A DNA stretch of 64,000 bases from Candidatus Harrisonbacteria bacterium CG10_big_fil_rev_8_21_14_0_10_40_38 (GCA_002773535.1 PFAZ01000001.1:154806-218805), one strand, 5' to 3'. Counted from the stretch's first letter, positions 4,262 to 62,250 are shown. Translations and numbers: made by a program. The notes: generated from the sequence alone by a model not told the origin.

Positions 4262-4299
4262 AATATAGGTGTTTTACCACACCTATTGACAAACATTTT

Positions 4300-4535
4300 A
4301 AATAAAAGTACGATATACAGCGGAACATATAAATATAAGTGGCGCCCAATATAAGGAGAAACGCCTTCACCTAGCGCAAAACGCAAGAAGTCCTAGCGGC
4401 TTCTCGCAGGCAAGCCTAAGGTAATGAGCTCGCCTGCCGCATTAACCTTTACCTGCGCTTTCGCGCGCGTCAAAAGGAGGTGTGCCTTCGAATAGCACAG
4501 AAACAACCCCACCGACCCGTTCGGTGGGGCTCTTT
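4300..4535 (+). ncRNA. candidate small structured RNA ending in an intrinsic terminator (class undetermined)
   Basis: About 240 nt GC-elevated non-coding stretch downstream of fmt with multiple stems (e.g. GCAGGCAAGCC...GGCGAGC...CTGCC). It ends in the hairpin CCCCACCGACCCGTTCGGTGGGG followed by TTTTTTT. Confidence 0.25.
4497..4535 (+). terminator. rho-independent terminator
   Basis: CCCCACCGAcccgtTCGGTGGGG stem followed by CTCTTTTTTTATT. Confidence 0.6.
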
Positions 4536-4620
4536 TTTTATTTAAATAATTTTAAAAATCTTTAGTCATCAAGCTACCGTCGCTACCCACTAACTCACCT
4601 AATTTCTAGTGGCTTAAATC

Positions 4621-4799
4621 AGTTGTAAGTTGTCAGTCCGAGCGAATCGAGGTCACAAGTCGCACCGAAGAATTTCCTTCTCCCATTTAATCTTAAGTCA
4701 TAAGTTTTAGGCCATTAGGTCGTAAGTATTTGGAATTTATTTGTAATTTGGGATTTGGAATTTAATTAGGTCAATTAGAAATTAGATTAATTAGTAATC
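4621..4799. repeat. dispersed intergenic repeat, long copy A (related to 15296-15454)
   Basis: Shares AGTTGTAAGTTGTCAGTCCGAGCGAAtCGAGGTCacaAGTCGCACCGAAGaATTTCCTT and the downstream ...TTTGTAATTTGG..TTGGAATTTAATTA...ATTAGAAATTAG blocks with copy B. About 85-90% identity by eye, with a ~30 bp indel. Confidence 0.6.
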
Positions 4800-4859
4800 T
4801 TTTATTCCCATAATTCATTATTCTTAATTCATAATTCATATTTAAGGTATAATTAACTC

Positions 4860-6554
4860 GTGAAGAAAATTTTAAAAACATTCGCTTTTTTCCCCCTTTC
4901 CCTCATCGCTCTTCTCTTTTTTATCCTGAGCGTAATCGAAGGACCTCTCATCGCTCATGCCCATGGCTCTCCCTTTCTTGAATTTGCGCCGGATATTTCC
5001 GACCGACTCAAAGTTTCAGATGTAGCAACGCCTGCGCAGGAATTTCAGCCCAAAAACGACTTCTTAGGAGCATTCGATCTCTGGGTAGATAACGAAGGAT
5101 CAGCAGGTTCTGCAACCTTTGAAATCATTGACCAAAATGGATCCGTTGTTGCAAGAAAAACACAAACCATTCCCCACCTACCAGCTGTCTGGAGCGGAAA
5201 TCAAATTCACGTTGACCTCGACAATACCATTAGTATTTCAAGCGAAGAAACATACAGAGTCCGCATAGTAAGCGGCCCACCACAACTCTATTTATACTAC
5301 GCAGACAAAACCCAACTTCTACAACACAACACACTCTATTACTCAGAATATTTTATAAGATCCGCATGGCTTGGAAACACAGAACAAAATTTTGCATTTA
5401 AAATAATCATCTACGAAGTTGAAGACACCGCTCCGCCTATTATCACAAACGCAACCACAACGGAGGTAAATTACTACACAGAAAGAATAGAATTTAACGC
5501 AAACGAGCCAATTGATTTTAAAATAGATTACGCGCCAATAGACGGAGAGGAAAAATCTACAAGTTATACCGGAACATTTCGAGTATGCGAGCCAGTTGCC
5601 TGTGGCGCGAATCTCACAGTCGAACCAGGTAAAAAGACATATGCCTATACGATCACCGCAAAAGATGAATGGGGAAACGAAGGGACAAAGGTAGGCACGT
5701 TTATTAGCCCACCATCTCCACCTACCCCAACGCCAGACCCGTCAGCCTCACCAGACACAACACCCGGAGCCACAACCACACCAGAATCAACATATTCTCC
5801 ATCACCAGACCTAACTCCTCCAACAATCACAAATTCCCGCATCATCGACTTAACTTCAAACAGCGTACGCATAAGCTGGACAACAAACGAAGCCGCCACA
5901 AGCAAACTTTATATATACAAAGGAAATACTTTAATAACAACCGAAGAAGACGCAACTTACGAACTCGAACACTTACTTGGCACTTCAAATATACTAACGC
6001 CAAAAACTTCATATACCGCAAAACTCGAAAGCAAAGACTCGAGCGGAAACATTGGAGCAACCTCCTTCAGCTTTCTCACAGAAGAAGTTGATTCCGACAA
6101 TCAAAATAACAATAACAAAAAACAGCCCAACGAAGACGAAGATGTTTCGCTTTCTCCTGAAAATGGCGGCACGCTTACATGGAACACAAAAGAAGACCCA
6201 CCGGAAGGTTTTCGCATAGATATTTTTGACGAAAATAATCACTATATCGGACAAAGAATCCTTTCAAAAGACAGCCGAGGATGGGAACTCGATCTCCCAC
6301 CAGGAAATTACAAAATCGTTCTCTACAAAGATGAAGGCGAATATTATGAAAAAGTAGGCAAATTTCTCTCAATTAAAGTGAGCGGAAATATTTACGGAAA
6401 GTTTAAAAAACAAATATATTTTGGAATCGCTGGCATGTTGGTACTCACAGGTATAGCAAGTTATATTTGGAATAAAAAACGCTACCCAAAACCAAAAAAG
6501 AAAAAAATGGAGACAGAGAAAGACACAACCTACGAAGCCAACCGCCCATACTAG
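4860..6554 (+). CDS. large secreted/surface-anchored protein
   Basis: GTG start; signal peptide; Pro/Thr-rich linker PPSPPTPTPDPSASPDTTPGATTTPESTYSPSPDLTPP; beta-rich repeats; KKQIYFGIAGMLVLTGIASYIW TM helix plus a KKRYPKPKKKK stop-transfer at the C-terminus. Confidence 0.6.
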   Translation: MKKILKTFAFFPLSLIALLFFILSVIEGPLIAHAHGSPFLEFAPDISDRLKVSDVATPAQEFQPKNDFLGAFDLWVDNEGSAGSATFEIIDQNGSVVARKTQTIPHLPAVWSGNQIHVDLDNTISISSEETYRVRIVSGPPQLYLYYADKTQLLQHNTLYYSEYFIRSAWLGNTEQNFAFKIIIYEVEDTAPPIITNATTTEVNYYTERIEFNANEPIDFKIDYAPIDGEEKSTSYTGTFRVCEPVACGANLTVEPGKKTYAYTITAKDEWGNEGTKVGTFISPPSPPTPTPDPSASPDTTPGATTTPESTYSPSPDLTPPTITNSRIIDLTSNSVRISWTTNEAATSKLYIYKGNTLITTEEDATYELEHLLGTSNILTPKTSYTAKLESKDSSGNIGATSFSFLTEEVDSDNQNNNNKKQPNEDEDVSLSPENGGTLTWNTKEDPPEGFRIDIFDENNHYIGQRILSKDSRGWELDLPPGNYKIVLYKDEGEYYEKVGKFLSIKVSGNIYGKFKKQIYFGIAGMLVLTGIASYIWNKKRYPKPKKKKMETEKDTTYEANRPY

Positions 6555-6633
6555 TAATGCCAAATGTAAAAAGTAAAAAGCACACTGTTTAAATAATTAA
6601 AATCACATTTTACATGTCACATCAAACATATCG

Positions 6634-8121
6634 CTAATGTATCTCCTCCCACGAAATCGTCTCATATTCGTCAGAAGTGAGCGGAAATCCTGGCGGAGGC
6701 CCGAATAAAAGGTTTGCATCATATATCAGGTTTCTGTTTGCATATCCCGAACAATAAATCCCACCACATGACCAGCTAAACCCATACCTCTCATTTGTCC
6801 CAATCATTCCATAAAGTGTAATAGTGTCCCTATATGCTTCCTCGCCACAGTAATTTTGATTACCGCTTGGAGCTTTATAATAATATCTTCCAACACGTCC
6901 ATTCTTTGCGATAATAGCTCCGTCAATTCTTAAATCATCCTCGCTATAAAGACCAACATTTATGTCATTCTGCGCAATAAGGCCAATAACATCAGTGCCA
7001 TCATAATTTGTATAAAGCAGATCATGATTAACATTGATACTTGTCTGAGTCCCAGGATTTTCAGGAAATTTCGCGGATGCAACAGTAATTCTTTGTCCAT
7101 CAATCTGCCCGCTAACCCACAAAAAATCCTCAACAAAGATTAAACCATTATTCGGCATTGGATACGTTCCAACAGATGTCGTTGCATTAATACTCCAAAT
7201 CCCCCAGTCATTATCACTGATTTGGTCAGAGCATCCGTTTGGCTTACGCTTGAGATCTGTAGCTTTTGAAATAGTATATGTGTCATCAGGATGAAAAACT
7301 ATTTCATATCCGTGTGTACCAGAATCTGGGTAATAAGCCCCATTTGTTTGCGCATCAGTTTTAATCTGCGCAAGGTCAGCAGCAATACCAGTAAAATCAA
7401 TTGCGGGCACAGGAAAATCTCTTCCAGCCATAAACACATCCGGCCTATTTGGAACTGGCGAGGGTGGAAGAGGATCGGCAGGATCTACGTGAGTATGCAC
7501 GCCAAAATCATACTGCCCCGAGTGATCTGGGTCATTATAAGAAGCAACCGCGCTAGTAATAATATTGTGCGCAATACCGTCAAAGCGAATTCCCCCGTTT
7601 GAATGAATCGGCCCAAAAACTTCAGTTCCTTCGCCAAATCTCATTGTGTCATTTGCCGCAACAGCAAATTTTGCAAAAGAAGATATGCCGAGCTTAGCTT
7701 GTATAGTTCTCGATACAGACGCATCCGAATACAACCTTCCAGTCGAAGTAAGCGTAACAATAGTTGTACCAGAAAGCGGTTCAACAGAAAGCTCTATTTC
7801 CCCAATCTGTTCCCCATCCTTATCATAATAAGGCAAAGTATATGGCCCTGGCTGGCCCGTTCCATTTGTATAATCAGTCGGATCATGTGCAAGATGCCAC
7901 CTATAGTATTCAATCCCCGCCTCCGCTACTTGAAACGCCTGTTCAGAGTTATACGCTCGAAATGTAGAGTTTATGCTATAAAGCGCAAGGTTAATCAGAA
8001 CCGCAATAAAAACTACTGCCAATGCAGACAAAACAAGTGCTTGAATTAAAATCTGCCCACCCTGTCCACCATTAAAAGCAGTTTTTAGTTTTAAGTTTTT
8101 AGTTTTAAGTTTTATATTCAT
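6634..8121 (-). CDS. PilX-like minor pilin / pilus-associated protein
   Basis: N-terminal hydrophobic helix followed by ...AYNSEQAFQVAEAGIEYY, which resembles the PilX_N motif. Sits at the distal end of the pilB-pilC-pilin string. Confidence 0.5.
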   Translation of the reverse strand: MNIKLKTKNLKLKTAFNGGQGGQILIQALVLSALAVVFIAVLINLALYSINSTFRAYNSEQAFQVAEAGIEYYRWHLAHDPTDYTNGTGQPGPYTLPYYDKDGEQIGEIELSVEPLSGTTIVTLTSTGRLYSDASVSRTIQAKLGISSFAKFAVAANDTMRFGEGTEVFGPIHSNGGIRFDGIAHNIITSAVASYNDPDHSGQYDFGVHTHVDPADPLPPSPVPNRPDVFMAGRDFPVPAIDFTGIAADLAQIKTDAQTNGAYYPDSGTHGYEIVFHPDDTYTISKATDLKRKPNGCSDQISDNDWGIWSINATTSVGTYPMPNNGLIFVEDFLWVSGQIDGQRITVASAKFPENPGTQTSINVNHDLLYTNYDGTDVIGLIAQNDINVGLYSEDDLRIDGAIIAKNGRVGRYYYKAPSGNQNYCGEEAYRDTITLYGMIGTNERYGFSWSCGGIYCSGYANRNLIYDANLLFGPPPGFPLTSDEYETISWEEIH

Positions 8122-8738
8122 TCTCCTGTTCTTAAATTTCTCAAATTAATTTGACTGGAAACAGTTATAGGTGGCGGTGGAAGTAGCGGATTATCATCAA
8201 CAATTAAAGAGATCTTAACTAATCGAACATCTGAAGGAACGACTGGATCAGCAAGAGGCGTAGAAGTCCCTTTATAATCAGAACCAAAATACGAAAATAT
8301 CGGAGTCGAAGTAGCCGCAATATGTTTTAATATGGGTCGCAGAGATTCAGAAGCTGTCGAGGTGCTATACGTCAAAGGGTTACCTTCTGGCTTTATTATA
8401 CTCTGCATAAGAGTATCGCCCTGTAGAAAATAATGAACACGTTCACGATAAGAGTCAGAATCAACATTGCTATAAAAAGCAAATGAATTGGGTTCAGTTA
8501 TCTCGAGCGCAAACCCACCCACATTTGATTGCCCCGCAGATCTTACTTGTGGAGCAATTATTGTCATAGCAGATTGAGCATCTCTATAAGCAATAAACGA
8601 ATCATTTAGAAAACCATTTACAGAAAAAATATCCCTCTGAAGCGTTATAAGTACACCGGATAACACCGCCAAAATTGAAAGACTTATTAAAAGCTCGATT
8701 AAAGTAAATCCCTGCTTTGATTTAATAAATTTTTTCAT
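8118..8738 (-). CDS. type IV pilin / pseudopilin (prepilin-type N-terminal methylation domain)
   Basis: KQGFTLIELLISLSILAVLSGV: canonical G/FTLIE class III signal. Confidence 0.75.
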   Translation of the reverse strand: MKKFIKSKQGFTLIELLISLSILAVLSGVLITLQRDIFSVNGFLNDSFIAYRDAQSAMTIIAPQVRSAGQSNVGGFALEITEPNSFAFYSNVDSDSYRERVHYFLQGDTLMQSIIKPEGNPLTYSTSTASESLRPILKHIAATSTPIFSYFGSDYKGTSTPLADPVVPSDVRLVKISLIVDDNPLLPPPPITVSSQINLRNLRTGE

Positions 8739-8739
8739 A

Positions 8740-10566
8740 TTAAGAAGAAGGATCTAAAAATACCTCAATCTCCTCCCACGAAGAACCAACCGTAATTGTT
8801 TGAGAGTAAGAATCGTAACCGGAATGGGAAACGTCTAAAGTATAAGACCCCGAAGACAAACCGTGAAAAAACGCCTGCCCTGGTGGAACACATTCTGAAG
8901 CGTATGTTAAAGTCACATCAGAAACATTTGGCGTAAATGAAGTACTAGCTGTAGAAAGATAAATTTTATATTTAAAATACCTATCACCATTATGATCTGT
9001 ATTTATATCAGGTGATGTAGTTGTATAAAAAGTATTTGAAGTCCCATCAGGTCCCAAAAAATCCCAACTCAAAGGTGAACTAGTTGTAGCCGTTGCGATT
9101 TGGATTTTTAGCGGATCCGAGCCGGTATCAGGTGACTGATTTGTTGGGTTATAAGAAATAGTATAAAAAGTACTATCAGAACCCGTATCAAAAGTTGACG
9201 ATGTTAAAAATCCCGAACTTACATATGTAGTCGTCGAAACCTGATTTAAAGTAAGATCTCCAACAGGGTTGTCGACAGATATATTACCATCCTGACTCTC
9301 ATATCCTGTAAGATCTCCAAAGTCAGCCTGTCCTGACCCTCCCGACCAATCAGTCTGATTAAATGAACCGCGTCCTGTAGTTATTGTCTCATCGTACCCG
9401 CTTTTTGTGAGATTAACTACTGTATTTGCGATTGGGAGCAAAGTAACAGAATCCTTAACAGTTACAAGTAGTGCCTGCGGGTCTTTAGGCTGGACAACGA
9501 TTTTGAAATCCTGAGTCGAATTTGGTAAAAGGTTTAGCGGTATATTTGGTATTGTACCCGCTACATCATACGAAGAATTACTAAACGACATAGAGTACGC
9601 GTCCCACTCAAGATTTGAAACAGTTCTAGTTCCACCACTTCCTGTGGTAAAACCGTTTGAATATTTCAAAATATCTGGAGTGGTTCCAATAAGCTTTGCG
9701 CCAGAAAGAGTGAAGTTTATACTTCCCACCGGCGAACACGACTCCGTAAGACTCGAAACACCAAGAGTGCTTACACGATCGATAGCAAAAGTAACACTAG
9801 TAACTTGACCGGTAGCAACAGTAACCGGAAGTTTTACAGGGTTTGGTACCGAAACACTCGGCTCATATGTTTGATCCGTAGAATAACCCGTCTTTGAAAC
9901 AGTAATGTCATATGTCTGACTCCCTGGCGGAACATCAATGAGTTTCAGATACCCATCAGAATCTGTCTCATCCGTAAGATCAATTTGGGGCGTTGATGAC
10001 GCATTTACAACGTGAACCTTTGCACTCGGTATACCTATCCCATTTGCATCAATCGCTTGAATAAAAATCGCCCCGTTTGAACCAGTAGACTCAAGACTCC
10101 TCGGTGCAACCCGACCGGTAAAATTAAATATCTCTGGTCTATCACAGTTTGCGCAATTAAGTTCAAGTGAAACAAGTTTATAGTCTGCAGGCGAAGTATC
10201 GTTTGGCGCGCCACCAATAGTTCCATCAAACGGATCATCTACATTACGAATTGTAGTAGTGAGAGTAAAAGCATAATTATCCCTATAAAATATCTGAACA
10301 GGTGGCACAACTCCTGAAGGCACGCCGCCAACAACACCAACATCCGAATACGGCATGTTCCTCAAAACCTCTATCTGTTCATTTGCGATAGATGCCGCTG
10401 CAACTTTTTGCCTCGAACTCGTAAGAAGTGTGAGAACAACCGAAAAACCTTGATACAAAACAAGGCCAATAACAACTAAAAGCGCTACCCCAATAACCGT
10501 CTCGAGAAGTGATAATCCTTTGAGACGTTTTTTTTCAAGCAACGGCAAAACGGCATGCTTTCTCAT
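8740..10566 (-). CDS. very large prepilin-type protein (608 aa) with Ig-like beta-rich body
   Basis: KGLSLLETVIGVALLVVIGLVL prepilin N-terminus with Glu at +5; Thr/Ser-rich repeats. Confidence 0.7.
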   Translation of the reverse strand: MRKHAVLPLLEKKRLKGLSLLETVIGVALLVVIGLVLYQGFSVVLTLLTSSRQKVAAASIANEQIEVLRNMPYSDVGVVGGVPSGVVPPVQIFYRDNYAFTLTTTIRNVDDPFDGTIGGAPNDTSPADYKLVSLELNCANCDRPEIFNFTGRVAPRSLESTGSNGAIFIQAIDANGIGIPSAKVHVVNASSTPQIDLTDETDSDGYLKLIDVPPGSQTYDITVSKTGYSTDQTYEPSVSVPNPVKLPVTVATGQVTSVTFAIDRVSTLGVSSLTESCSPVGSINFTLSGAKLIGTTPDILKYSNGFTTGSGGTRTVSNLEWDAYSMSFSNSSYDVAGTIPNIPLNLLPNSTQDFKIVVQPKDPQALLVTVKDSVTLLPIANTVVNLTKSGYDETITTGRGSFNQTDWSGGSGQADFGDLTGYESQDGNISVDNPVGDLTLNQVSTTTYVSSGFLTSSTFDTGSDSTFYTISYNPTNQSPDTGSDPLKIQIATATTSSPLSWDFLGPDGTSNTFYTTTSPDINTDHNGDRYFKYKIYLSTASTSFTPNVSDVTLTYASECVPPGQAFFHGLSSGSYTLDVSHSGYDSYSQTITVGSSWEEIEVFLDPSS

Positions 10567-10682
10567 GCCTCTTAAGTTTAAAACGGATACGTAAAAAATG
10601 TAATGTGCATAGCTATTTCTAGTCGTCAGCTACCAGCTTTAGTCTTTAGTTATAAGTTTTTAGTCTTCAGTTGTAAGTCCGT

Positions 10683-11735
10683 CTACCTCACACTTCTCGT
10701 AAGTTCATATATCGGCGTAATAAACGAAAGCGCAATAAATCCTACAATACCACCCATAAATATAAGTAAAATCGGTTCAAGTATCCCAGATAGATTTTTT
10801 ACAAAATCATCCAGTTCGTTCTCGTAATATTCAGAAAGATAAAAAAGATTCTCTGTAAGGTTTCCGGTATTTTCACCAACCTCAATCATATTAACCAAAG
10901 TTGGAGGAAATCTTTTTGAGTCATGTTCAAGATATTTAGAGAGAAACTCCCCCTTTCTTACAGCCTCACCCGCTTTTTCAAGCTCTCTTTTATATACAAG
11001 GTTATTTAGAGACGCCCCTGAAACCGAAATCGCCTCGATTATCTTGACACCAGATTTTAGCAAAAGACCAAGAGTCCTCGCAAAGTTAGCCATATTGTAA
11101 TTAATTATGGAATGACCAAAAACCGGCACATAGAATAACATTTGATGATAAACATACCGAATCGCTTTAATGGATAGGGCAAAACGCACAATTATAAATA
11201 AAGTAATTGCTCCAACAAGTAACCAAATTCCCTGATTTGTAACCACGTCAGATACCGCAATAAGAATCCTCGTCGTAAGAGGCAACTCTGCGCCAAGAGA
11301 GTTAAATAGCGGAAGGATTTTAGGGAAAACAAAAAGTATCATAGAAGTCGCAATGACAACCGTTGCAAATAAAATGACCATCGGGTAAACCATCGCCCCC
11401 TTCACTCGCTTTCTAAGAGTGGCTTTCTTTTCAAGTTCAACACCAAGATAAAGAAGGTTTTCCGGTAAAGTTCCGCTTACCTCCGCAACCTTAATAATAT
11501 TTATAAAAAGATCTCCAAAAACTTTCGAATATTTTGCAAGACTAGCAGAAAGAAAAACACCCTTATTAGTGTCATCAATCAAAGTCTCAAGAATTTTTTT
11601 GAAATTCTTGTTTTTTGTCTGTTGTGCAAACATTTTAAGACCATTAACCAATGGCACCCCAGCTTTCAGAGTGAGTGAAAGGTTTTTTGTAAAAAGTATT
11701 TTTTCTTGTAAAGGAACTCCTGAAAACAATGACAT
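10683..11735 (-). CDS. pilC: type IV pilus / T2SS platform protein (GspF/PilC family)
   Basis: Polytopic membrane protein with GspF-type repeats, directly downstream of the pilB ATPase. Confidence 0.8.
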   Translation of the reverse strand: MSLFSGVPLQEKILFTKNLSLTLKAGVPLVNGLKMFAQQTKNKNFKKILETLIDDTNKGVFLSASLAKYSKVFGDLFINIIKVAEVSGTLPENLLYLGVELEKKATLRKRVKGAMVYPMVILFATVVIATSMILFVFPKILPLFNSLGAELPLTTRILIAVSDVVTNQGIWLLVGAITLFIIVRFALSIKAIRYVYHQMLFYVPVFGHSIINYNMANFARTLGLLLKSGVKIIEAISVSGASLNNLVYKRELEKAGEAVRKGEFLSKYLEHDSKRFPPTLVNMIEVGENTGNLTENLFYLSEYYENELDDFVKNLSGILEPILLIFMGGIVGFIALSFITPIYELTRSVR

Positions 11736-11770
11736 ACAAAGTAAAAGTTTTTAGTTTTAAGTTTTTTTAA

Positions 11771-13039
11771 TCACTCATGAAACACCCTCAACACCTCCTC
11801 AATTGTTGTAATACCCTGCTTTACCTTATCGAGTCCATCCTCAAGCATTGGTATCATCCCAGCTTTTATAGCTGCATCACGAATCACAGAAGCGTCAGCT
11901 CTTTTCATTATAAGCGATCTTGTCTCTTCGCTGATTTCCAAAACCTCATGTATTCCAACCCGACCTAAAAATCCCGTCTTACCACATTTATTACATCCCA
12001 ATCCAACAGAGAGATCCGGTAGGTTTTGCAAAAACGAGTCCGGCACAGTCCCTCTTAGTGATTCGATCTCCTCCGGTTTTAGTGTTCGCTCCGCCCTACA
12101 CTCATCACAGAGCTTACGCACCAAACGCTGACCAATAGCAACGTTAATGGTTGAAGCAATAAGGAACGGCTCAACGCCCATATCAAGAAGTCTCGGAAGT
12201 GTAGTCGCGGCGTCATTTGTGTGAAGTGTTGAAAGCAGTTGGTGACCTGTCATAGCTGCATTTACAGCAATAGACGCCGTCTCATTGTCACGAATCTCAC
12301 CCACCATGATGATATTCGGGTCTTGCCTCAAAATAAATCTAAGTCCCTCGGCAAAAGTTAATCCGGTTCTCGAATGAACCTGTACTTGATCAATACCCTC
12401 AATAGAATATTCAATCGGATCTTCGATTGTGATTATCGAAACATCTCTGGTATTTAATTGTCCAAGTATCGAATAAAGCGTAGTAGTTTTACCAGATCCA
12501 GTAGGCCCAGTGGCCAAAATCATTCCATAAGGCTTCTTCATTGCCTTTTTTATCTTCTCGAGATTCGATGGAGAAAAACCCAACCTATCAAGTGTAAATC
12601 CTTGCGATTTACCAGACAGTAAACGCATCACGCAGTTCTCTCCATAATAAGTTGGAGCAACCGAAACACGAACATCGACAAACTCCCCTTCCTTAACCTG
12701 TAACTTAAAACGACCATCCTGCGCCGCCTGATGCTCGTCAGTTCTCATACCGGAAATAATTTTTATACGGGTAATAATCTCTGACTGCAGTTCCTTTTTA
12801 AAATTGAAACTATCGTGAAGAACACCGTCGATTCTAAATCGCGCGATTATATTATGTTCAGCAGGATCAATGTGTATATCAGAAGCTCTTGCTTCATAAG
12901 CATTTAAAATAAGCGAATCAACAAGTCGTATTACCGAAACAGCCGTCTCCGGAACCGAGCCTTTTTCGCCTACACCAGCATTTGACGCCTGCCCTCCATG
13001 CTGTGAATTCTGATTTTCCTGTTTTTCACGAATAGCCAT
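11771..13039 (-). CDS. pilB: type IV pilus assembly ATPase (GspE/PilB family)
   Basis: Walker A ILATGPTGSGKTTTLYS, Asp/His boxes, and a C-terminal CxxC...CxxC tetracysteine. Confidence 0.9.
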   Translation of the reverse strand: MAIREKQENQNSQHGGQASNAGVGEKGSVPETAVSVIRLVDSLILNAYEARASDIHIDPAEHNIIARFRIDGVLHDSFNFKKELQSEIITRIKIISGMRTDEHQAAQDGRFKLQVKEGEFVDVRVSVAPTYYGENCVMRLLSGKSQGFTLDRLGFSPSNLEKIKKAMKKPYGMILATGPTGSGKTTTLYSILGQLNTRDVSIITIEDPIEYSIEGIDQVQVHSRTGLTFAEGLRFILRQDPNIIMVGEIRDNETASIAVNAAMTGHQLLSTLHTNDAATTLPRLLDMGVEPFLIASTINVAIGQRLVRKLCDECRAERTLKPEEIESLRGTVPDSFLQNLPDLSVGLGCNKCGKTGFLGRVGIHEVLEISEETRSLIMKRADASVIRDAAIKAGMIPMLEDGLDKVKQGITTIEEVLRVFHE

Positions 13040-13112
13040 AAGTTAATGCCCTAAGTATAGCAAGAAGTAGGTAAATTGGTAATAAGTCATATAGAATATA
13101 CGTATTACCTTT

Positions 13113-14441
13113 ATGAAAACACAAAAAATTCTCTGGAAAACATTCCTTCTTGCAAACTGGCTAATCATAGGCCTTTTTTGGTATCAGGGATCTGGTAACC
13201 TCTTTAAAACAGGAGATTCAGGCGGTATTTTTTTAGCGCTTGGACGACTAATGGGCTTGTCAGCCGTTTATATGATCCTACAGCAGTTCTTTTTTATGGG
13301 TCGTCTCCCATGGTTGGAAAAAGTTTTTGGTTTGGATAATCTTGTAAAACTTCATCATAAAAATGGAAAATGGGGACTCGTTTTTTTGTTATTACACCCA
13401 ATAGCCATTATCGAAGGATACAGACTGGGCTCGGGCTTGAGTTTTTTTAGCCAATTCGGAAGCTTTCTAACCAACTACGACGACATATTAAATGCATTTA
13501 TCGGTCTCTCACTTTTTGTTATTGTCGTTGGCCTTTCATTCACGATAGTACGTTCACGACTCCGATATGAAACATGGTATGGAGTACACCTACTCGCCTA
13601 TTTCGCGGTGTTTTTTTCGTTAGGGCATCAAATAAAGCTTGGACACGATCTTCTCGCAAGTAAAATATTCTACAGCTACTGGATAGCGCTCTACTCGACG
13701 GTATTCGGAATACATTTTATTTTCCGCTTTGCTCGCCCAATATGGCTCTTTAAAAAACACGAGTTCCGAGTAAGCCGTATTGAAAGAGAAGCTCCACACA
13801 CCGTATCGGTTTATATTAGTGGAAAAAATATGGATTCGTTCAAAATAAAATCAGGACAATTCATGATTTTCAGATTTCTCACAAAAAAATTCTGGTGGCA
13901 GGCACACCCATTCTCACTTTCCATGGTACCGAATGGAAAAGAAATCCGCATAACAGTAAAAGAACTCGGTGATTTTACTCGCCATGTAAAAGATCTCAAA
14001 ATCGGAACAAAAATTATCATCGATGGCCCATATGGCGTATTTACCAATCTATTTGCCGTACAAAATAAAGTTCTTATGATTGCAGGAGGTATAGGTATAA
14101 CACCCATTAGATCTCTTATGGAAGAAATGCTAGAAAAAGGAAAAGACGTTACACTTCTCTACGGCAACAGAACCGAAAACGACATTGTATTTAAAAAAGA
14201 ATTAGAAGAGTTAAGCAAAAAATACGGCGCCCGTATCACACATATAATAAGTCACGACGAATCACACGCAGGAGAAAAAGGAACCATAGACAAAGAAAAA
14301 ATCAGCCGCCTCGTACCCGACATAGCCTCAAGAGAAGTTTTTCTCTGCGGACCGGCACTCATGATGGAGTCCGTTATAAAACATCTCAAAGAACTCGGCA
14401 CCGAAAGCCAACTAATCCACTACGAAAAATTTGTGCTATAG
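13113..14441 (+). CDS. ferric reductase / NADPH-oxidase-family flavocytochrome (TM heme domain + FAD + NAD(P)H domains)
   Basis: Multi-TM N-terminus with conserved His residues; HPFSLS FAD motif; GGIGITP NAD(P)-binding motif. Confidence 0.75.
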   Translation: MKTQKILWKTFLLANWLIIGLFWYQGSGNLFKTGDSGGIFLALGRLMGLSAVYMILQQFFFMGRLPWLEKVFGLDNLVKLHHKNGKWGLVFLLLHPIAIIEGYRLGSGLSFFSQFGSFLTNYDDILNAFIGLSLFVIVVGLSFTIVRSRLRYETWYGVHLLAYFAVFFSLGHQIKLGHDLLASKIFYSYWIALYSTVFGIHFIFRFARPIWLFKKHEFRVSRIEREAPHTVSVYISGKNMDSFKIKSGQFMIFRFLTKKFWWQAHPFSLSMVPNGKEIRITVKELGDFTRHVKDLKIGTKIIIDGPYGVFTNLFAVQNKVLMIAGGIGITPIRSLMEEMLEKGKDVTLLYGNRTENDIVFKKELEELSKKYGARITHIISHDESHAGEKGTIDKEKISRLVPDIASREVFLCGPALMMESVIKHLKELGTESQLIHYEKFVL

Positions 14442-14492
14442 AAAAACCGCATCCCCTCCCCGGAATGCGGTAAAAAACAACCTATTCATCCA

Positions 14493-15158
14493 CTAATAAA
14501 GTCCATGCCCTCGCATTATATTTCTTATTAAACCAGGATGAAGAACTCCTTTATGTCTTGCTCGAACATCTTTCCAAAAGCCCGCTCCCAAAAACAAGAT
14601 TTCAGGATTCTGTCCAATCATCCTGATCATTACAACACGATCAATCCTACAGGTATTAATAAAAAAAGAAAAAGTCGACCCACTTTCATCCGCCTCTCTA
14701 AGAGCGGGTCTCCTTTGGTTTGACTCTACGAACGTTTGAGCTATTTTCAAAAGACTCGATTCAAGTTCTCCCGCTAGCTCCAAGTCCTGAGAAGCTTGAG
14801 TAAGAAAGCCTCTTTCCTTAAAAAGAAAAGCGACGCCAACCTTGTCACACTTCGTGCGTCGTAATTCTCTTATTTCATTAGACACCGCTGTAGTAAGTTG
14901 CAAAGGAATAGCCACATCCAATACATCGCCCCCAAAACATATCCAAAAATCAATCGCCAAAGCATCTGCAAGTGACAAGGTTTCGGTCCTATAGATTGCT
15001 TTTTTCCCAAGAGAAACACATTCCTCAAAAGAAGTCACATCATCCGCTCGTTCATACCCAAGACTCAAAAAAGAAGCTAGAAAATTCTCCTCCGCTTCCA
15101 TCCCAAGTTGCATCAGATATTCATGATCGCAGTCGTTTCTAGTTCCATCATACAACAC
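14493..15158 (-). CDS. hypothetical protein
   Basis: 221-aa ORF with no recognisable motif; flanked by the repeat element. Confidence 0.4.
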   Translation of the reverse strand: MLYDGTRNDCDHEYLMQLGMEAEENFLASFLSLGYERADDVTSFEECVSLGKKAIYRTETLSLADALAIDFWICFGGDVLDVAIPLQLTTAVSNEIRELRRTKCDKVGVAFLFKERGFLTQASQDLELAGELESSLLKIAQTFVESNQRRPALREADESGSTFSFFINTCRIDRVVMIRMIGQNPEILFLGAGFWKDVRARHKGVLHPGLIRNIMRGHGLY

Positions 15159-15295
15159 GGCAATCTCCCTTCACTTAAACATGTTATCAAGAGTTCAAAA
15201 CTTTATTCAGCATAAATAAAACAGACACAATTGTCAAACCAACCCGCACAAAAAGTCTTTAGTTGTTAGTCGTCGGTTATTAGGCTCCAGTCGTC

Positions 15296-15454
15296 AGTTG
15301 TAAGTTGTCAGTCCGAGCGAAGCGAGGTCCTGAGTCGCACCGAAGGATTTCCTTTTCCTATTAGGTCATTAGTATTTGGAGCTTGTTTGTAATTTGGTGC
15401 TTGGAATTTAATTAAAAATTAGATCAATTAGTAATTAGAAATTAGTTTTAAGTT
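15296..15454. repeat. dispersed intergenic repeat, long copy B (related to 4621-4799)
   Basis: See copy A. Embedded between AGTTGTAAGTT/TAGTCTTTAG short tracts at 15250-15485. Confidence 0.6.
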
Positions 15455-15485
15455 GTCAGTTGTAAGTTTTTAGTCTTTAGCTGTT

Positions 15486-19276: not shown

Positions 19277-19439
19277 TGAGAAACTAATATATCACCTTTT
19301 TGACTATTTGAAAAGACTTGCGCTTTCCAAATAAAAGGATATAAAATAAATACCAGTCCAGAAAGCGAAAGCGGGGTATTGGTTGTTCTCCAACTCGTAG
19401 CCTTTAGCTTTCTGGGCTCTTTAGCTCTTTAAATCAATG

Positions 19440-19518
19440 GCTTAGAGTAGGCAGTTCCCCCTTCCGTTCCTTCCCAAAGGACGAGAGATTCGCCATAACT
19501 GCCCTACTCTAAGCCACC
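19440..19518. promoter_or_regulatory. long hairpin (18-bp stem, ~40-nt loop) in a divergent intergenic region
   Basis: GGCTTAGAGTAGGCAGTT...AACTGCCCTACTCTAAGCC; followed by a GGAGGGG SD and the GTG start of the 19537 ORF; on the other strand it lies upstream of the ABC-F gene. Confidence 0.3.
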
Positions 19519-19536
19519 AACAGGAGGGGTTTACAA

Positions 19537-23014: not shown

Positions 23015-23121
23015 CTTTTTTTACTTAATAATAATAGCCACAGTATACCAAAACCACAGAAACAAACCAATTTCAGTCGTAAGTCATTAGTTATTAGTTG
23101 TTAGTCTTTAGTTGCAAGTTA

Positions 23122-23724
23122 TTAGTCTTTAGTTTTTATTTGCACATCTCCTTCTCGTAAAACAATCACCTTTCCCCTCTTTACCTCAATGAGCGTCGAG
23201 GGTTTACTCGATGTTTTACCAGATACATAAAAATCAATTTTATCTCCAAAATATTTTTTTGCCTCTTGGATATTTCCCGCAGGCTTCTCCCCTTCAGGGT
23301 TTGCAGACGGCGCAACCAAAGGACTAATTTCAGAAACGAGAGAAATCAGTTTTTTATTTTTTGGCATTCGAAAAGCAAGCTTTTTTGTCCCCCTGTGAAG
23401 ATATTTAAAAATAGGATCTCCCGCAGGCAAAATCACACTCACCTTATCCGGCCAAATTTTTTTCAAAAACTCTAGAGTTTCAATGTTGAGTTTTATTTTG
23501 AAAAGTTCCAAGTCATTTATAGATGAAATCAAAATAATAAACGGCTTTTTGGGGTTTCGTCCTTTCGCTTCATAAATTCTCTCAACTGTTTTTGGTCGTA
23601 ATGCCTGCCCTAAAATCCCATATATAGTATCGGTAGCCAAAACCCCAACACCCCCATCCCTCAAAATTTTTTTATACGAAACTTTCATACAAAACCAAAT
23701 CTCACACTTTAAAATACCCATCAA
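23122..23724 (-). CDS. tsaC: L-threonylcarbamoyladenylate synthase (YrdC/TsaC family)
   Basis: The GGVGVLATDTIYGILGQA motif. Confidence 0.75.
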   Translation of the reverse strand: MMGILKCEIWFCMKVSYKKILRDGGVGVLATDTIYGILGQALRPKTVERIYEAKGRNPKKPFIILISSINDLELFKIKLNIETLEFLKKIWPDKVSVILPAGDPIFKYLHRGTKKLAFRMPKNKKLISLVSEISPLVAPSANPEGEKPAGNIQEAKKYFGDKIDFYVSGKTSSKPSTLIEVKRGKVIVLREGDVQIKTKD

Positions 23725-24325: not shown

Positions 24326-24973
24326 CTATAATTTCTCCACAATACTTCCAATCGACGACTGAAAATTATCATCACTTATTTCAAAATACGGAAAACCATA
24401 TTTTTCCGCTTCAGATTTAAAATACAAACTCATCTCTTTTATGAAACTAGCCATCGCTTCAATTCTTTCTTCGCTATAACCCAGAGCACTCATCCAATCT
24501 TTTCGGGGAAAATCCCTTACATGCTCCAACAACGACTTTAAATGATTTTCGCTGGTGTTTCCTACAAAAACTACATTTTCTGGCTTGTTTTTCATTCCAG
24601 CAACAAGAGATGAAATTATTGCAACTCCTTCTACAATATGAACAGTGTCGTCTTCGCAAAAACTATTACAAAAAGATTCAATAGATGACCACAATGCTTT
24701 TGATTCTCGATTTTGATATTCAACAATTTTTTTCGGATTGTTTAAATGGTTTTCAATCCATTCCTTTTCTGATACAGTCTCCGTTTTCTCAACAATAAAA
24801 AGATCGCCGTCTTTTTGAAAAGATGTTTTCCTTGCTGCATTTCTTATGGCATCAGTCGACACAACGTGTCCATGCACCTTATCGGCAAGCGCAAAAGCAA
24901 TAATTGATTTACCAACTCGTGGTGGCCCTCCTAAAAAATATGTACGCTGAAGCGCATTATTATCTGAATTCAT
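24326..24973 (-). CDS. P-loop NTPase / kinase-like protein
   Basis: GGPPRVGKSIIAFALA Walker A near the N-terminus. Confidence 0.5.
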   Translation of the reverse strand: MNSDNNALQRTYFLGGPPRVGKSIIAFALADKVHGHVVSTDAIRNAARKTSFQKDGDLFIVEKTETVSEKEWIENHLNNPKKIVEYQNRESKALWSSIESFCNSFCEDDTVHIVEGVAIISSLVAGMKNKPENVVFVGNTSENHLKSLLEHVRDFPRKDWMSALGYSEERIEAMASFIKEMSLYFKSEAEKYGFPYFEISDDNFQSSIGSIVEKL

Positions 24974-25078
24974 AGTTTTAAGTTTTTAGTTGTTTGTTTT
25001 TAGTCATTAGTTAGGTTAATTAGGTTAATTAGAAATTTGTTTTAAGTTATTAGTTGTAAGTTGTCAGTTGTAAGTCTC

Positions 25079-46410: not shown

Positions 46411-46525
46411 ATGAATAGCTAAACTCTAGCAAAAAACCATTAACCAAGGAAAGGTACTTGCCATAAATTACAAAAAAGTATATACTCCAAAATAGTTCAA
46501 TTCCCAAGTCTATATGGAGCATGTC

Positions 46526-46666
46526 ATGGCAAGCGAAACAGAAACCAAAAAGACCATCCGAGAAAGAGTACAAGAAAAGCGAAAAAAAGGCAGGTCAAGC
46601 AATGGACGAATCATCTTCATCGTGGCTGTTTTCGTAATCTTTCTCCTTTATCTCATCACAAGATGA
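46526..46666 (+). CDS. small basic + single-TM protein (tentative)
   Basis: GGAG SD; MASETETKKTIRERVQEKRKKGRSSNGRIIFIVAVFVIFLLYLITR. Confidence 0.3.
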   Translation: MASETETKKTIRERVQEKRKKGRSSNGRIIFIVAVFVIFLLYLITR

Positions 46667-46735
46667 AGATGCGTACCCACAAGCCCGACGCGCGAACATC
46701 GGGTTTCCCTAACTTAAAAAAAGGAAGGGCTCCTC

Positions 46736-46921
46736 ATGTCACACAAAGACCTAAAACTTGGCCACGCCTCTGAACCACTCCCTAAAGAACTCATAGACAT
46801 ACTCAAAAAGAGAGGAAAGAAAGAAAAGAGAAAGAGATTAATAAAAATCGTTGCCGATATTGTCATCCTGGCTGTACTCATAGTTCTCCTCATAATCACA
46901 CTGAAAGGATACATCCTTTAA
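46736..46921 (+). CDS. small basic + single-TM protein (tentative), same architecture as 46526
   Basis: ...KKRGKKEKRKRLIKIVADIVILAVLIVLLIITL. Confidence 0.3.
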   Translation: MSHKDLKLGHASEPLPKELIDILKKRGKKEKRKRLIKIVADIVILAVLIVLLIITLKGYIL

Positions 46922-47053
46922 TCCAACAGTCTTTTCAACTAACCCCGATACACCGGCCTGCCATGCGCAGGCCCTTGTTTTTATCACTTATTACAAAACA
47001 ATAATTCTCTAAACAATCACTATAGTCGCCTTTTAACTCAAAGACCAACCACT

Positions 47054-47085
47054 TAGCAAATTTTGACGATCGTCAAAATTTGCTA
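47054..47085. repeat. 32-bp perfect palindrome TAGCAAATTTTGACGATCGTCAAAATTTGCTA (copy 1 of 3)
   Basis: Read directly; identical to the copy at 59966-59999; core TTTTGACGATCGTCAAAA shared with 59192-59235. Confidence 0.6.
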
Positions 47086-47219
47086 TGTAAAAACATTTTA
47101 AAAGAATAATCATCTTAGCACCCCGCTAAAACCGTTTTTTTCACATTTCACTATACCAACTTAAAAAAAGCCAGACATCTCAAGATGTCTGGTAACCACT
47201 CTAAGAAAAATTGCCTTAT

Positions 47220-47458
47220 TTATCCATTAGCGTCTCCACCTCGTTGATGATCAATATATTGCCGCAGATATTGGTAAATAGCTTCAAAGCCCACTTTTCT
47301 CCCCTTCGGTGTCGCTATTTCCGGCGGCCCAGAAATTCTAAATGTAAAAACATCAAGTTCGCCCCAATAATCTGGCGTGCAAAACATTCCAACGCTTCAC
47401 ACTCTTTCAACTGATAAAGGTAGAGGCTGTGTGTCAACTGTTGTTGATAGTCACTCAT
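47220..47458 (-). other. small-ORF region with two overlapping frames (possible frameshifted HicB/UPF0150-like gene) followed by a terminator
   Basis: Frame 1 is MSDYQQQLTHSLYLYQLKECEALEC... with a strong SD. Frame 2 is MFCTPDYWGELDVFTFRISGPPEIATPKGRKVGFEAIYQYLRQYIDHQRGGDANG. Terminator CCAGACATCTTGAGATGTCTGG+T8 on the minus strand at 47172-47200. Confidence 0.25.
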
Positions 47459-47717
47459 CAAAACTTTCCTCCAATAAGGTTAATATATTAAGTACCGATC
47501 AAAAATATAACACGTAACCCAAAAACTAGTCTACTGGACATTTTTCATTCATCTTTCATTCATTCTAACCACAAAAGCAATACAAAAATATTTTAAGAAG
47601 GTCTCGGATACATTCCGTTTAATCCAACAACATATTTCCTTCCTTTTTAGGTTTTAGTGAAATTCGATTAGAAATCAATTCATTGAACGAAAATTTCTTG
47701 TCGCAAATTTTATGGCC

Positions 47718-47748
47718 GGAAAACTCCCGCAAGGCGGGAGGTAAACGG
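47718..47748 (-). terminator. rho-independent terminator downstream of fusA
   Basis: On the minus strand: CTCCCGCCttgCGGGAG followed by TTTTCC. Confidence 0.5.
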
Positions 47749-47834
47749 GAGCCGGAAAATTTGCCAAGAAATTAAGAGAGATGAATATGATTTCTGAGAA
47801 TAGAACGTTTCCTAAAAAGGAACGAAATATACGC

Positions 47835-54857: not shown

Positions 54858-54890
54858 AAACCCCGTCTTCACAAGAAGTCGGGGTTTTTA
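54858..54890 (+). terminator. rho-independent terminator
   Basis: AAAACCCCGTCTTCACAAGAAGTCGGGGTTTTTA. Confidence 0.6.
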
Positions 54891-54945
54891 GCTATCAGTT
54901 ATTAGTTTTCGGTTTTCAGTTGTAAGTTGTAAGTCTTAAGTTATC

Positions 54946-57327: not shown

Positions 57328-57582
57328 TTAGTTTTGCCCTTCTTCTGTTTTTTCTTCCTCTTCGATTGGGGAAACACGAACCCTCTCACCGGGTTTTGGT
57401 TTTTCAGGTATAACAAAGACAAGTAAAATATACGCGAGTATCCCTGGAAAAACTCCGGTTATTATGCTCAAAAATACATACCCCGCTCTAATCAAAATAG
57501 GATCAACCCCAAAGTATTCTCCAATGCCACCCATGACACCTGAAAAAACTTTATTGTCCTTGCTTTTATATAACTTTTTCAT
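57328..57582 (-). CDS. PspC-domain membrane protein
   Basis: VFSGVMGGIGEYFGVDPILIRAGYVFLSI matches the PspC motif. Confidence 0.65.
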   Translation of the reverse strand: MKKLYKSKDNKVFSGVMGGIGEYFGVDPILIRAGYVFLSIITGVFPGILAYILLVFVIPEKPKPGERVRVSPIEEEEKTEEGQN

Positions 57583-57700
57583 AGTTTTAGTTTTTATTTT
57601 TCAGATTTAAGTCATCATTTAGATCTATTAACAATTTCCAATATAACCCATAATTTATGTTTTTAGTTGTAAGTTATAGGTTGTAAGTTATTCCACCATT

Positions 57701-59058: not shown

Positions 59059-59191
59059 AAGAAAAACATTACACGAAAACAGGGGAAATTTAAACAAAAA
59101 AAATCAAATCCAAAATTCCCAAAAAATTCCAAATCCAACACCTCAAAAAAACAAACAAAAATAACCAAACCATCACCCACCTCACACACAA

Positions 59192-59235
59192 CCCACCTAA
59201 CAGTTTTTGACGATCGTCAAAAACTGTTAGGTGGG
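59192..59235. repeat. 44-bp perfect palindrome CCCACCTAACAGTTTTTGACGATCGTCAAAAACTGTTAGGTGGG + TTTT (copy 3, variant flanks)
   Basis: Read directly. Shares the TTTTGACGATCGTCAAAA core with the other two copies, but the arms differ and are still self-complementary. Confidence 0.6.
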
Positions 59236-59270
59236 TTTTCCTCAACTATAAATCTCGCCCCTTCCTTTTT

Positions 59271-59825: not shown

Positions 59826-59965
59826 ATAAAAAATATAACTCGAAACAAAAAAACAAAAAAGAGGATGAAAGTAAGAGCAAAAATAAATAAAGCAAAATCA
59901 AACAAAACGACCAAAAGCTTAAAGCAAAAAATCTTAAACACCAAAACTCACCAGAAAAACCCTAC

Positions 59966-59999
59966 CTAGCAAATTTTGACGATCGTCAAAATTTGCTAG
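59966..59999. repeat. 34-bp perfect palindrome CTAGCAAATTTTGACGATCGTCAAAATTTGCTAG (copy 2)
   Basis: Read directly; between the end of the lexA operon and the msrA start. Confidence 0.6.
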
Positions 60000-60061
60000 A
60001 TAAAACCATCAGAAACAAACAGATCATGTCACCCACTAAATTAAAACTATTAAGACTTCAC

Positions 60062-61649: not shown

Positions 61650-62250
61650 GTCCTCCCCGCACTCCCCTTCGGGATCGTGCGGGGTTTCCTTTAGGCTCCG
61701 CCACTCATGAGAATTCACCAGTTATCTCTTTTCCTCTATCAGCTATGTTTTGACGTTCAATATAGCGACGTATGGTTTCTTCGTTCAAGCCAACGGTAGA
61801 TACAAAGTATCCAGTACTCCACATATTTCCTTTTTCATATATCTGATCAATGAATTTGTACCGCTTCTTGAGTTCATGACTTGAGTATTGTTTTAACTTC
61901 TGTACGACTGAGGAAATGGCATATTTGGGTGGTATTTTCATGAGAATATGCACATGGTCATCACCTGTATTGATTTCATGAAAATACCAGTCTGGGTGGT
62001 AACGTCCTGTGCGGTACAAATTCTTGATCAGATCCGTACGAACATAGTGTTTGAGTATTTTTCTACGATATTTGGTCCCTCAGACTATATGATACTGAAT
62101 CTGATAAACACTGTGGTTTAACTGGCGAATTCTCATGCTAACAGCGTAGCACGCACCTGCGTGCTACGCTCATTCATCCCCGCACTGCGCTCTCTCATTT
62201 CAATAGATGTCTGTACCCTTGGTCGCGACGAGCTTGTGCGGGGTTTCCTG
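61650..62250 (-). mobile_element. IS200/IS605-family insertion sequence (tnpA only) with terminal hairpins
   Basis: Left hairpin CCCCGCAC...GTGCGGGG (61654-61682); 12-bp-stem hairpin AGCGTAGCACGC-acct-GCGTGCTACGCT (62143-62170); repeated GTGCGGGGTTTCCT at 61675 and 62236. Confidence 0.7.
61705..62136 (-). pseudogene. tnpA: IS200-type Y1 (HUH) transposase TnpA with an in-frame TGA replacing the conserved Trp
   Basis: Continuous frame from ATG 62136: MRIRQLNHSVYQIQYHIV-TGA-GTKYRRKILKHYV...GDDHVHILMKIPPKY...WSTGYFVSTVG...IRRYIERQ. The HUH motif and catalytic Tyr are intact. TGA lies at 62079-62081. Confidence 0.7.

Follow-up and report, generated by a model that had tools for sequence, protein, structure and literature searches.

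Introduction

Arrays of tandem heptanucleotides, such as the STRR and TAACTGA families, have been known since 1990 without an established function. Reports of them have so far been limited to large-genome Cyanobacteria, Beggiatoaceae, a few Bacteroidetes and xanthomonads. Here we describe heptamer arrays in the intergenic spacers of a 64,000-nt stretch of DNA, hereafter the window, from Candidatus Harrisonbacteria bacterium CG10_big_fil_rev_8_21_14_0_10_40_38 (GCA_002773535.1; PFAZ01000001.1:154806-218805). A preliminary description of the window had drawn attention to a dispersed intergenic element with two long copies, accompanied by short tracts of related sequence in other spacers.

The cyanobacterial STRR heptanucleotides were reportedly described by Mazel et al. 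in 1990, STRR1–3 being CCCCAGT, TTGGTCA and CAACAGT, respectively. Small dispersed repeats (SDRs) of ~21–27 nt are said to have been found nested in the heptamer arrays of Nostoc by Elhai et al. in 2008.

TAACTGA and related heptamers occur as direct repeats in Beggiatoaceae, Cyanobacteria and a few Bacteroidetes (MacGregor 2015, PMC4679880). TAACTGA arrays are mostly intergenic and forward-oriented, ending ~1 nt before start codons that have no ribosome-binding site; some overlap the ends of ORFs or come after stop codons, and they are mixed with related heptamers (PMC4679880). The repeats are patchy across phyla and missing from the syntenic spacers of near relatives (PMC4679880). In Microcystis, the eight sets that were mapped between stop codons share a single chromosomal orientation (PMC4679880). 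The role proposed for the repeats is to bind a post-transcriptional factor such as S1, Csp or CsrA (PMC4679880). The G-rich STRR/GGGGAYT heptamers known from Nostoc and Xanthomonas are able to form G-quadruplexes and occur without preference for either replication strand (PMC4692102). REPINs, a further class of short repeats, are inverted doublets of REP sequences with long hairpins and are mobilised by RAYT transposases (Bertels and Rainey 2011, PMC3116915).

Results

A family of heptamer arrays

The repeats of the window have a period of 7 nt. When the window was scanned for self-matches, lag 7 returned eight regions comprising 371 nt; lags 4–6, 8, 10 and 11 returned none, and lags 9 and 12 one each. 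Tandem Repeats Finder (TRF) detected arrays of period 7, 14, 21 or 28 nt at every listed site. The pattern AGTN4AGTN4AGTN4AGT matched 17 times in the window, 17 of 17 on the plus strand, against 0.00 matches expected from 100 shuffles. The lag-7-specific signal and the excess over shuffled sequence show that the tracts are not mere low-complexity AT-rich spacer. The repeat family is real and statistically unambiguous.

All eight short tracts of the preliminary description were found where it had placed them, and it was right that many related tracts exist. They are not the loose mixture of motifs that it had proposed; they are strict tandem arrays of one degenerate heptamer, in which 7-nt units lie head to tail with no CRISPR-like spacers. 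The 14 runs yielded 77 units, whose consensus, in minus-strand reading and aligned to the phase of TAACTGA, is N-R-A-C-T-D-A. The 77 comprised 29 different units, the commonest being CAACTAA (9), AAACTAA (8), AAACTTA (7), AGACTAA (6), CAACTTA (6) and CAACTGA (6). Of these, CAACTAA, AAACTAA, AAACTTA and CAACTGA are 1–2 positions away from TAACTGA, which itself occurs exactly in two of the 77 units. The arrays therefore belong with the 'related heptamers' rather than with the strict TAACTGA family. We refer to runs of this unit as AGTT-type, after the plus strand. Other heptamer sub-families were also present, namely AATTAGN (TTAGGTCAATTAGAAATTAG), ATTTGGN and CATAATT.

Exact protein look-ups assigned the window to a Candidatus Harrisonbacteria metagenome-assembled genome of the Candidate Phyla Radiation (CPR/Patescibacteria; NCBI proteins PIR894xx, locus tags COU07_). 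Contigs of the same organism added 9.5 kb at the left end and 8 kb at the right end (L086 and L096 flanks), so that 81.4 kb of one genome, all of it from one replichore, was sampled. The window has a GC content of ~40%, and 61 of its 75 gene calls based on open reading frames (ORFs) are on the minus strand, an 81% bias. Every array is intergenic or overlaps the ends of ORFs, and together the arrays occupy 857 of the 9484 nt of intergenic DNA in the window (~9%). A scan for AGTT-type runs found 12 in the window and 14 in the 81.4 kb; the stretch from 25.1 to 54.9 kb of the window and the 8 kb past its end had none.

Position of the arrays relative to genes

The upstream stop codon is the anchor of most arrays; the eight that separate minus-strand genes all begin 0–8 nt from it or overlap it. 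All arrays and array segments of the window named below lie on the plus strand, except the one at 59098–59150. The AGTT-type array at 10637–10682 adjoins the stop codon of the T2SSF gene (10683), and that at 57657–57692 ends 8 nt from the stop codon at 57701. The ORF at 23122–23724 draws its last five codons and its stop from a nine-unit AGTT-type array (23073–23137). At 24974–25078, AGTT-type, AATTAG-type and AGTT-type units follow one another and fill the whole 105-nt spacer between the stop codon at 25079 and the start codon at 24973. The AGTT-type array at 54884–54945 has the stop codon at 54946 on one side and, on the other, a hairpin that carries U-runs on both strands, which places it in a 3′ untranslated region (UTR).

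At four of the ~10 loci, the array reaches a start codon (8121, 11735, 24973 and 57582), and the interval between the two holds no Shine-Dalgarno sequence. The AGTT-type array at 11744–11766 makes up most of the 35-nt spacer between the T2SSE and T2SSF genes, upstream of the start codon at 11735, and a short AGTTTT-type array (57583–57612) adjoins that at 57582. The five-unit AGTT-type array at 8078–8114 is itself coding: its minus-strand translation is a Lys-rich N-terminal extension, MNIKLKTKNLKLKT, of a 495-aa protein of the pilus operon. Taken up to the start codon at 8121, which overlaps the upstream stop codon (ATGA), the array encodes 16 residues (MNIKLKTKNLKLKTAF) that are missing from four homologues.

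Two plus-strand genes, rpmA and a DHHA1 gene, are preceded by AATTAG-type arrays that stop 1 nt short of the ATG. The first of these arrays (TTAGGTCAATTAGAAATTAGGTTAATT..., 494–530) precedes rpmA (L27, 532–816). The second lies outside the window, at 5735–5785 of flanking contig L086 (about −3734 to −3684 in window coordinates); it contains an exact copy of the 14-mer TTAGGTCAATTAGA and ends before a gene encoding a DHHA1-domain protein. A short-read contig (L088) begins exactly at this TTAGGTCAATTAGA module and ends just before that of the long copy A, described below. The module was considered as a promoter and this was rejected, as a hexamer scan called no promoter at it. The one array in the opposite orientation, of TTTGG type (59098–59150, minus strand), adjoins the start codon at 59097. 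The genes that flank the arrays share no functional theme.

Orientation and strand asymmetry

All AGTT-type runs are on the plus strand, 12 of 12 in the window and 14 of 14 in the 81.4 kb. The sole minus-strand match to the pattern in the 81.4 kb is a chance occurrence in unrelated sequence inside a small called ORF. The TTAGGTCAATTAGA module is likewise confined to the plus strand, with two exact and three near copies in the window and four exact copies in the 81 kb. The preliminary description had proposed a common plus-strand orientation regardless of gene direction; this holds for the AGTT-type runs and the TTAGGTCAATTAGA module and does not extend to the inverted TTTGG-type array at 59098–59150. 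Plus-strand genes, including pgk and the fibronectin type-III (FN3)-like gene at 4860–6554, flank three AGTT-type runs, namely one in copy A and both arms of copy C. Gene direction alone therefore cannot explain the orientation.

Strand asymmetry in the genome is unusually strong and independent of gene direction. Third-codon GC skew, read on the plus strand, was −0.384 in plus-strand genes and −0.385 in minus-strand genes, and AT skew was +0.23 in both. The 17 kb of flanking sequence had skews of the same sign as the window; in two relatives (L092 and L094), skew was only weak or inconsistent. The arrays have skews of +0.363 and −0.287, opposite in sign to the genome background, and are therefore not a by-product of mutational bias. 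A replication-strand-linked constraint or an origin specific to one strand may underlie the uniform chromosomal orientation.

Long composite copies and their GC-rich inserts

The two long copies of the preliminary description are real: 4619–4698 (copy A) and 15294–15373 (copy B) are 85% identical over 80 nt, and a second block, 4714–4768 versus 15360–15414, is 85% identical over 55 nt. Between pyrG and pgk, ~5 kb upstream of the window, we found a further long copy, C (3925–4190 of L086). Copy A comprises an AGTT-type left arm (4619–4641; GGACTGA CAACTTA CAACTGA in minus-strand reading), a GC-rich insert of type 1 (4638–4679; CCGAGCGAATCGAGGTCACAAGTCGCACCGAAGAATTTCCTT), a copy-specific segment (4680–4713) with ~29 nt that are missing from copies B and C, and an AT-rich backbone of TTAGGTC, ATTTGGN and AATTAGN heptamers that is common to all three copies (4714–4798). 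Just beyond it, a lag-7 region at 4806–4852 with a CATAATT-type array (4809–4840 according to TRF) runs into a TATAAT-like hexamer before the GTG start codon at 4860. Copy B has a left arm of two AGTT-type runs (15252–15316), a type 1 insert (15313–15354; CCGAGCGAAGCGAGGTCCTGAGTCGCACCGAAGGATTTCCTT), a backbone of ATTTGGN and AATTAGN heptamers (15360–15446) and an AGTT-type right arm (15442–15485) that adjoins the stop codon of the ABC-2 permease gene (15486). It lies upstream of a promoter-like site.

A three-way alignment showed that the backbone common to copies A, B and C consists of an AGTT-type arm, TTAGGTCATTAGTATTTGGAATTTATTTGTAATTTGGGATTTGGAATTTAATTAGGTC..AATTAGATTAATT, AGTAATTAGAAATTAG and a second AGTT-type arm. 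Insert 1 (CCGAGCGAAKCGAGGTCNNNAGTCGCACCGAAGRATTTCCTT) is present in copies A and B and missing from copy C; it adds ~34 to 53 nt, depending on how the flanks are aligned. Copy C contains instead a different GC-rich piece of 31 nt, insert 2 (ATCATGCCGAAGGCAGATCCTCCTCCGGAGG). In the 81 kb, insert 1 thus has two copies and insert 2 one. The 20-mer AGTCGCACCGAAGRATTTCC, the second half of the GC-rich module, occurred exactly twice, against 0.03 expected. The preliminary description was correct in recognizing a dispersed composite intergenic element; its GC-rich module is not the conserved core, since copy C has no such module and what is conserved is the AT-rich heptamer backbone. Because the copies share this backbone and copy C is without insert 1, the module is an optional nested insert. 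Self-comparison of the window revealed no terminal inverted repeats bounding the elements, and the three-way alignment revealed no target-site duplication at the insert boundaries.

We searched for the module elsewhere. Among 185,579 species genomes, AGTCCGAGCGAANCGAGGTC matched 23 times, always in an unrelated context without heptamer flanks. A metagenome collection returned 59 matches, likewise in unrelated contexts and none of them heptamer-flanked; the window's own copies were not returned, so this search is uninformative on the copy number in this genome. The contigs that matched AGTCCGAGCGAANCGAGGTC in the collections were mostly GC-richer (GC 0.45–0.71), and two matches, in Uhrbacteria, were inside a coding region. 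Viral contigs gave no matches to three patterns. The 20-mer AGTCCGAGCGAAGCGAGGTC recurs in many unrelated metagenome contigs (L027–L085), where it is apparently non-coding and mostly in GC-richer sequence than the window. Some 15 of these contigs are short (roughly 1.3–2.0 kb, several exactly 1367 nt) and share the conserved flanks GTCAAAATGAAGCCGCCGCCCGCAGGGCAC...; in L065, AGTCCGAGCGAAGCGAGGTC adjoins the similar GTCATCCCGAGCGGAGCGAGGGA. The recurring sequence is a widespread GAGCGAAGCGAGG motif.

The genes around the long copies include fmt, a gene encoding an FN3-like protein, a type IV pilus-like operon, a ferric-reductase-like gene and genes of an ABC-2 transporter. The pilus-like operon encodes T2SSE, T2SSF, a CarboxypepD_reg protein, a pilin and the 495-aa protein. 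The region that separates fmt from copy A holds a candidate small RNA gene (4286–4538, plus strand). It has a promoter-like TTGACA-17-TACGAT, ~220 nt of GC-richer sequence and a strong intrinsic terminator (4507–4538); its fold z-score was −2.1 and it had no match in Rfam.

Stability and distribution in relatives

Six assemblies of the organism, all of them consensus sequences, were 100% identical over every array that they covered, with zero gaps. This identity disfavours both fast variation in unit number and an assembly artefact, and the differences in unit number that mark a contingency locus were not seen among the six consensus assemblies.

The closest relative, P0012, has a marker protein 80% identical to that of this genome; in the relatives that were compared, the marker is ~51–54% identical. 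They (L092 included) are syntenic, but their spacers are 7–21 nt long, versus 35–598 nt here. Three lag-7 arrays built of other units (AGTGGAA, AGTGGCT and AATTGGA) were found in L094 and two arrays in L092; there were no lag-7 arrays in L099 or L100. L094, whose marker is 54% identical, also contains the exact 14-mer TTAGGTCAATTAGA inside a similar AATTAG-type array. In-frame heptamer arrays of AGTGGCT and AATTGGA types occur within the coding sequence of fmt in L094 (10965–11008 and 11200–11252) and in L092 (16120–16155). These encode, for example, ATSHLPLATS and SISNFQFPISN, and the length of the protein is unchanged with respect to Fmt of this genome.

RNA properties

The sense RNA of the arrays is predicted to be essentially unstructured, with a minimum free energy of 0 to −0.04 kcal/mol per nt versus −0.166 ± 0.057 for coding windows. 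AUG, GUG and UUG occur five times in the sense RNA and 25 times in the antisense RNA, against 30.6 expected. Eight of 12 array stretches contain stop codons in all three sense frames, the four exceptions being the shortest stretches. We set aside the interpretation of this unstructured, C>G RNA as a rut site; several arrays are inside operons.

The GC-rich module showed no excess structure on either strand when compared with shuffled sequences (z = −0.04 to +0.66), and neither copy of insert 1 gave a fold signal. The GCGAAGC hairpin of insert 1 is broken in copy A. A search of Rfam gave no match at the gathering threshold, and searches at permissive E-values gave only sub-threshold, chance-like matches. 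Because its fold z-score is about zero and it has no credible Rfam match, the module is not supported as a structured RNA.

Other repeats and hairpins

The window contains a REP-like hairpin family that is separate from the heptamer arrays. Near-perfect palindromes of 32–46 nt centred on GACGATCGTC (e.g., TAGCAAATTTTGACGATCGTCAAAATTTGCTA) occur in three copies, at 47051–47096, 59195–59240 and 59964–60009. The first of these coordinates falls within a 1.4-kb region (46411–47834) that has no ORF of ≥70 aa on either strand and that holds one GACGATCGTC-type palindrome and several small hairpins. A divergent spacer of 260 nt (19277–19536) contains a long inverted repeat, GGCTTAGAGTAGGCAGTT ... AACTGCCCTACTCTAAGCC, and other GC-rich hairpins, and had no match in Rfam. 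Finally, an 82-aa ORF on the minus strand (61705–61953) matched solely PF01797 (Y1_Tnp, IS200/IS605-type) and is apparently truncated. It is bracketed by similar CCCCGCAC...GTGCGGGGTTTCCT hairpins at 61654–61684 and about 62177–62243, and a look-up of its protein returned the same single locus only.

Discussion

Origin and role of the arrays

On balance, and with modest confidence, we favour the explanation that the arrays are a lineage-specific relative of the TAACTGA/STRR heptamer repeats that grew in Harrisonbacteria spacers and acts as spacer RNA. Slipped-strand mispairing would generate and lengthen the arrays where a spacer is under least constraint, immediately behind the stop codon. 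Whole composite arrays may then be copied into new spacers by recombination or gene conversion, and short GC-rich pieces may occasionally insert into them, as cyanobacterial SDRs do. Transcripts of the operons, which are predominantly on the minus strand, would include the arrays as single-stranded A/C-rich RNA. Such RNA is unfoldable, poor in start codons and mostly furnished with stops in all three frames, and would therefore be an inert intercistronic or 3′-UTR spacer. Where an array reaches a start codon, it could stand in for the Shine-Dalgarno region by providing an unstructured site for landing or re-initiation. By analogy to what has been proposed for the TAACTGA repeats, S1- or Csp-like proteins that bind single-stranded RNA may take part.

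Several points weigh against this explanation. Transcription of the arrays is an assumption. The three AGTT-type runs of copies A and C are antisense to their plus-strand neighbours, and for these the RNA rationale does not account for the orientation. Copy B is upstream of a promoter-like site, so that it could be transcribed only by read-through from the upstream gene. Only two of the 77 units are exact TAACTGA. The RNA traits, namely lack of structure and scarcity of starts, follow automatically from the sequence of the unit and need not be selected. Finally, replication polarity is not fully separable from the 81% minus-strand gene bias in a sample of one replichore. Because an RNA role explains neither the antisense runs nor the position of copy B, a replication-linked or a purely neutral explanation stays alive.

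The strongest competitor, which we regard as a credible minority view, is that the arrays are neutral or selfish products of slippage without cis function, their orientation being the footprint of a replication-coupled, strand-specific origin or expansion, for example slippage or template switching on one template strand. In favour of this view, the arrays are patchy in the clade and missing from the syntenic spacers of relatives, can be absorbed into the ends of ORFs without harm, are oriented according to the global strand asymmetry rather than gene direction and lie beside genes with no common function. It is harder to see why a streamlined CPR genome would spend ~9% of the intergenic DNA of the window on them. 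The arrays also oppose the mutational skew and so are not decaying toward the background, the exact 14-mer TTAGGTCAATTAGA persists in a similar array of a relative with a marker only 54% identical, and the absence of unit-number differences in six assemblies speaks against rapid slippage.

It is doubtful, though worth stating, that the arrays are chromosome-polar elements tied to replication rather than to transcription; if so, a switch of orientation would be expected at the origin and at the terminus of this strongly skewed CPR genome. Replication-tied polarity, if true, would represent either a new orientation-dependent cis signal made of tandem heptamers or the footprint of a copying mechanism based on single-stranded DNA (ssDNA). 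Such a mechanism would, if true, also seed the nested GC-rich mini-inserts and represent SDR-like mobility outside cyanobacteria.

Somewhat less likely still, the composite element or its GC-rich inserts could be a small non-autonomous mobile element of the MITE, REPIN or PATE kind, moved as ssDNA by a Y1 (HUH) transposase. Transposition of ssDNA would explain a uniform, strand-specific orientation, and a fragment of a Y1_Tnp ORF is present in the window, at 61705–61953; the ORF is fragmentary, however, and flanked by different hairpins. The inserts are present or absent among otherwise collinear copies and contain GAA-triloop mini-hairpin motifs (GCGAAGC, CCGAAGG and GCCGAAGGC), with a 14-nt palindrome in insert 2. 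Yet insert 1 folds no better than shuffled sequence, its GCGAAGC hairpin is broken in copy A, and no terminal inverted repeats or target-site duplications were found. Contig L088, which starts and ends beside the TTAGGTCAATTAGA module as short-read contigs do at repeats, speaks for mobility. Against it, the inserts are few, insert 1 being present twice and insert 2 once in 81 kb, and the 20-mer of insert 1 had no match in a heptamer context in 185,579 species genomes, metagenomes or viral contigs.

We think it improbable that the arrays are binding platforms at the DNA level or KOPS-like signals of chromosome polarity, read by a protein in one orientation relative to replication. Their polarity is strict over 81 kb and opposed to the background skew, and three units (21 bp) approximate two helical turns, in keeping with the period-14, -21 and -28 super-units reported by TRF. 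Signals of chromosome polarity sit poorly with arrays that are clustered and confined to spacers, with none in 25.1–54.9 kb or in the 8 kb beyond the window, and with a unit that is very degenerate and a sub-family that is reversed. We know of no candidate protein that binds the arrays.

A structured non-coding RNA, a riboswitch or a phase-variable contingency locus, suggested by the intergenic location, the two conserved copies of the GC-rich module and a unit length that is not a multiple of three, is very improbable and already largely refuted by fold z-scores of −0.04 to +0.66, an array folding energy of essentially zero, the lack of an Rfam match at the gathering threshold and 100% identity without array indels in six assemblies.

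The arrays display three clean regularities: a uniform polarity opposed to the skew, anchoring at stop codons and replacement of the Shine-Dalgarno sequence at some starts. A small, nearly clonal and strongly skewed genome such as this is convenient for separating explanations linked to replication from those linked to transcription.

Comparison with known systems

Like REP sequences and REPINs, the arrays are short intergenic repeats, and the window shares with those systems a fragment of a Y1-family transposase gene and, in insert 2, a palindrome. The arrays differ in being direct repeats without hairpin potential. STRR and the G-rich heptamers make up the wider class; from the G-rich STRR/GGGGAYT repeats the arrays differ in having no G-runs and a strict polarity. 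The cyanobacterial STRR families resemble the arrays as dispersed intergenic tandem heptamers with several sub-families per genome; the unit sequences, going by those reported for STRR, and the phylum differ, which places the arrays outside STRR proper. The inserts can be compared with SDRs as these are reportedly described, rather than by sequence: both are GC-richer pieces within heptamer arrays, optional in each copy and without obvious transposon ends. At roughly 31–53 nt, the inserts are longer than the ~21–27 nt given for SDRs, and two copies of one and one of the other were seen.

The TAACTGA repeats are the nearest system so far described, and the arrays differ from them in four respects. 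The units are far more degenerate, with 29 kinds among 77 and two of them exact; the host is a small-genome CPR bacterium, outside the phyla reported; the arrays are mainly positioned right after stop codons rather than before starts; and their orientation is uniform along the chromosome even beside genes on the opposite strand, with three runs reversed relative to plus-strand genes. The likenesses are nonetheless extensive. Both are tandem direct repeats of 7 nt with an ACT core and a final A, and the common unit CAACTGA is one base away from TAACTGA. Both are mostly intergenic, with some arrays overlapping the ends of ORFs or lying just past stop codons and with heptamers mixed within a spacer. 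The likeness in position is partial: at four of the ~10 loci, the arrays reach a start codon lacking a ribosome-binding site (0–8 nt away), as forward-oriented TAACTGA arrays do, but most are anchored at the upstream stop codon. Both are patchy, close relatives having short spacers free of repeats, and the single orientation along the chromosome has a parallel in the Microcystis sets. The arrays described here are thus an addition from a new phylum to the known class of intergenic heptamer arrays, with no evidence of a new mechanism, and they extend the phenomenon to a reduced CPR genome, in which non-coding DNA is expected to be under pressure.

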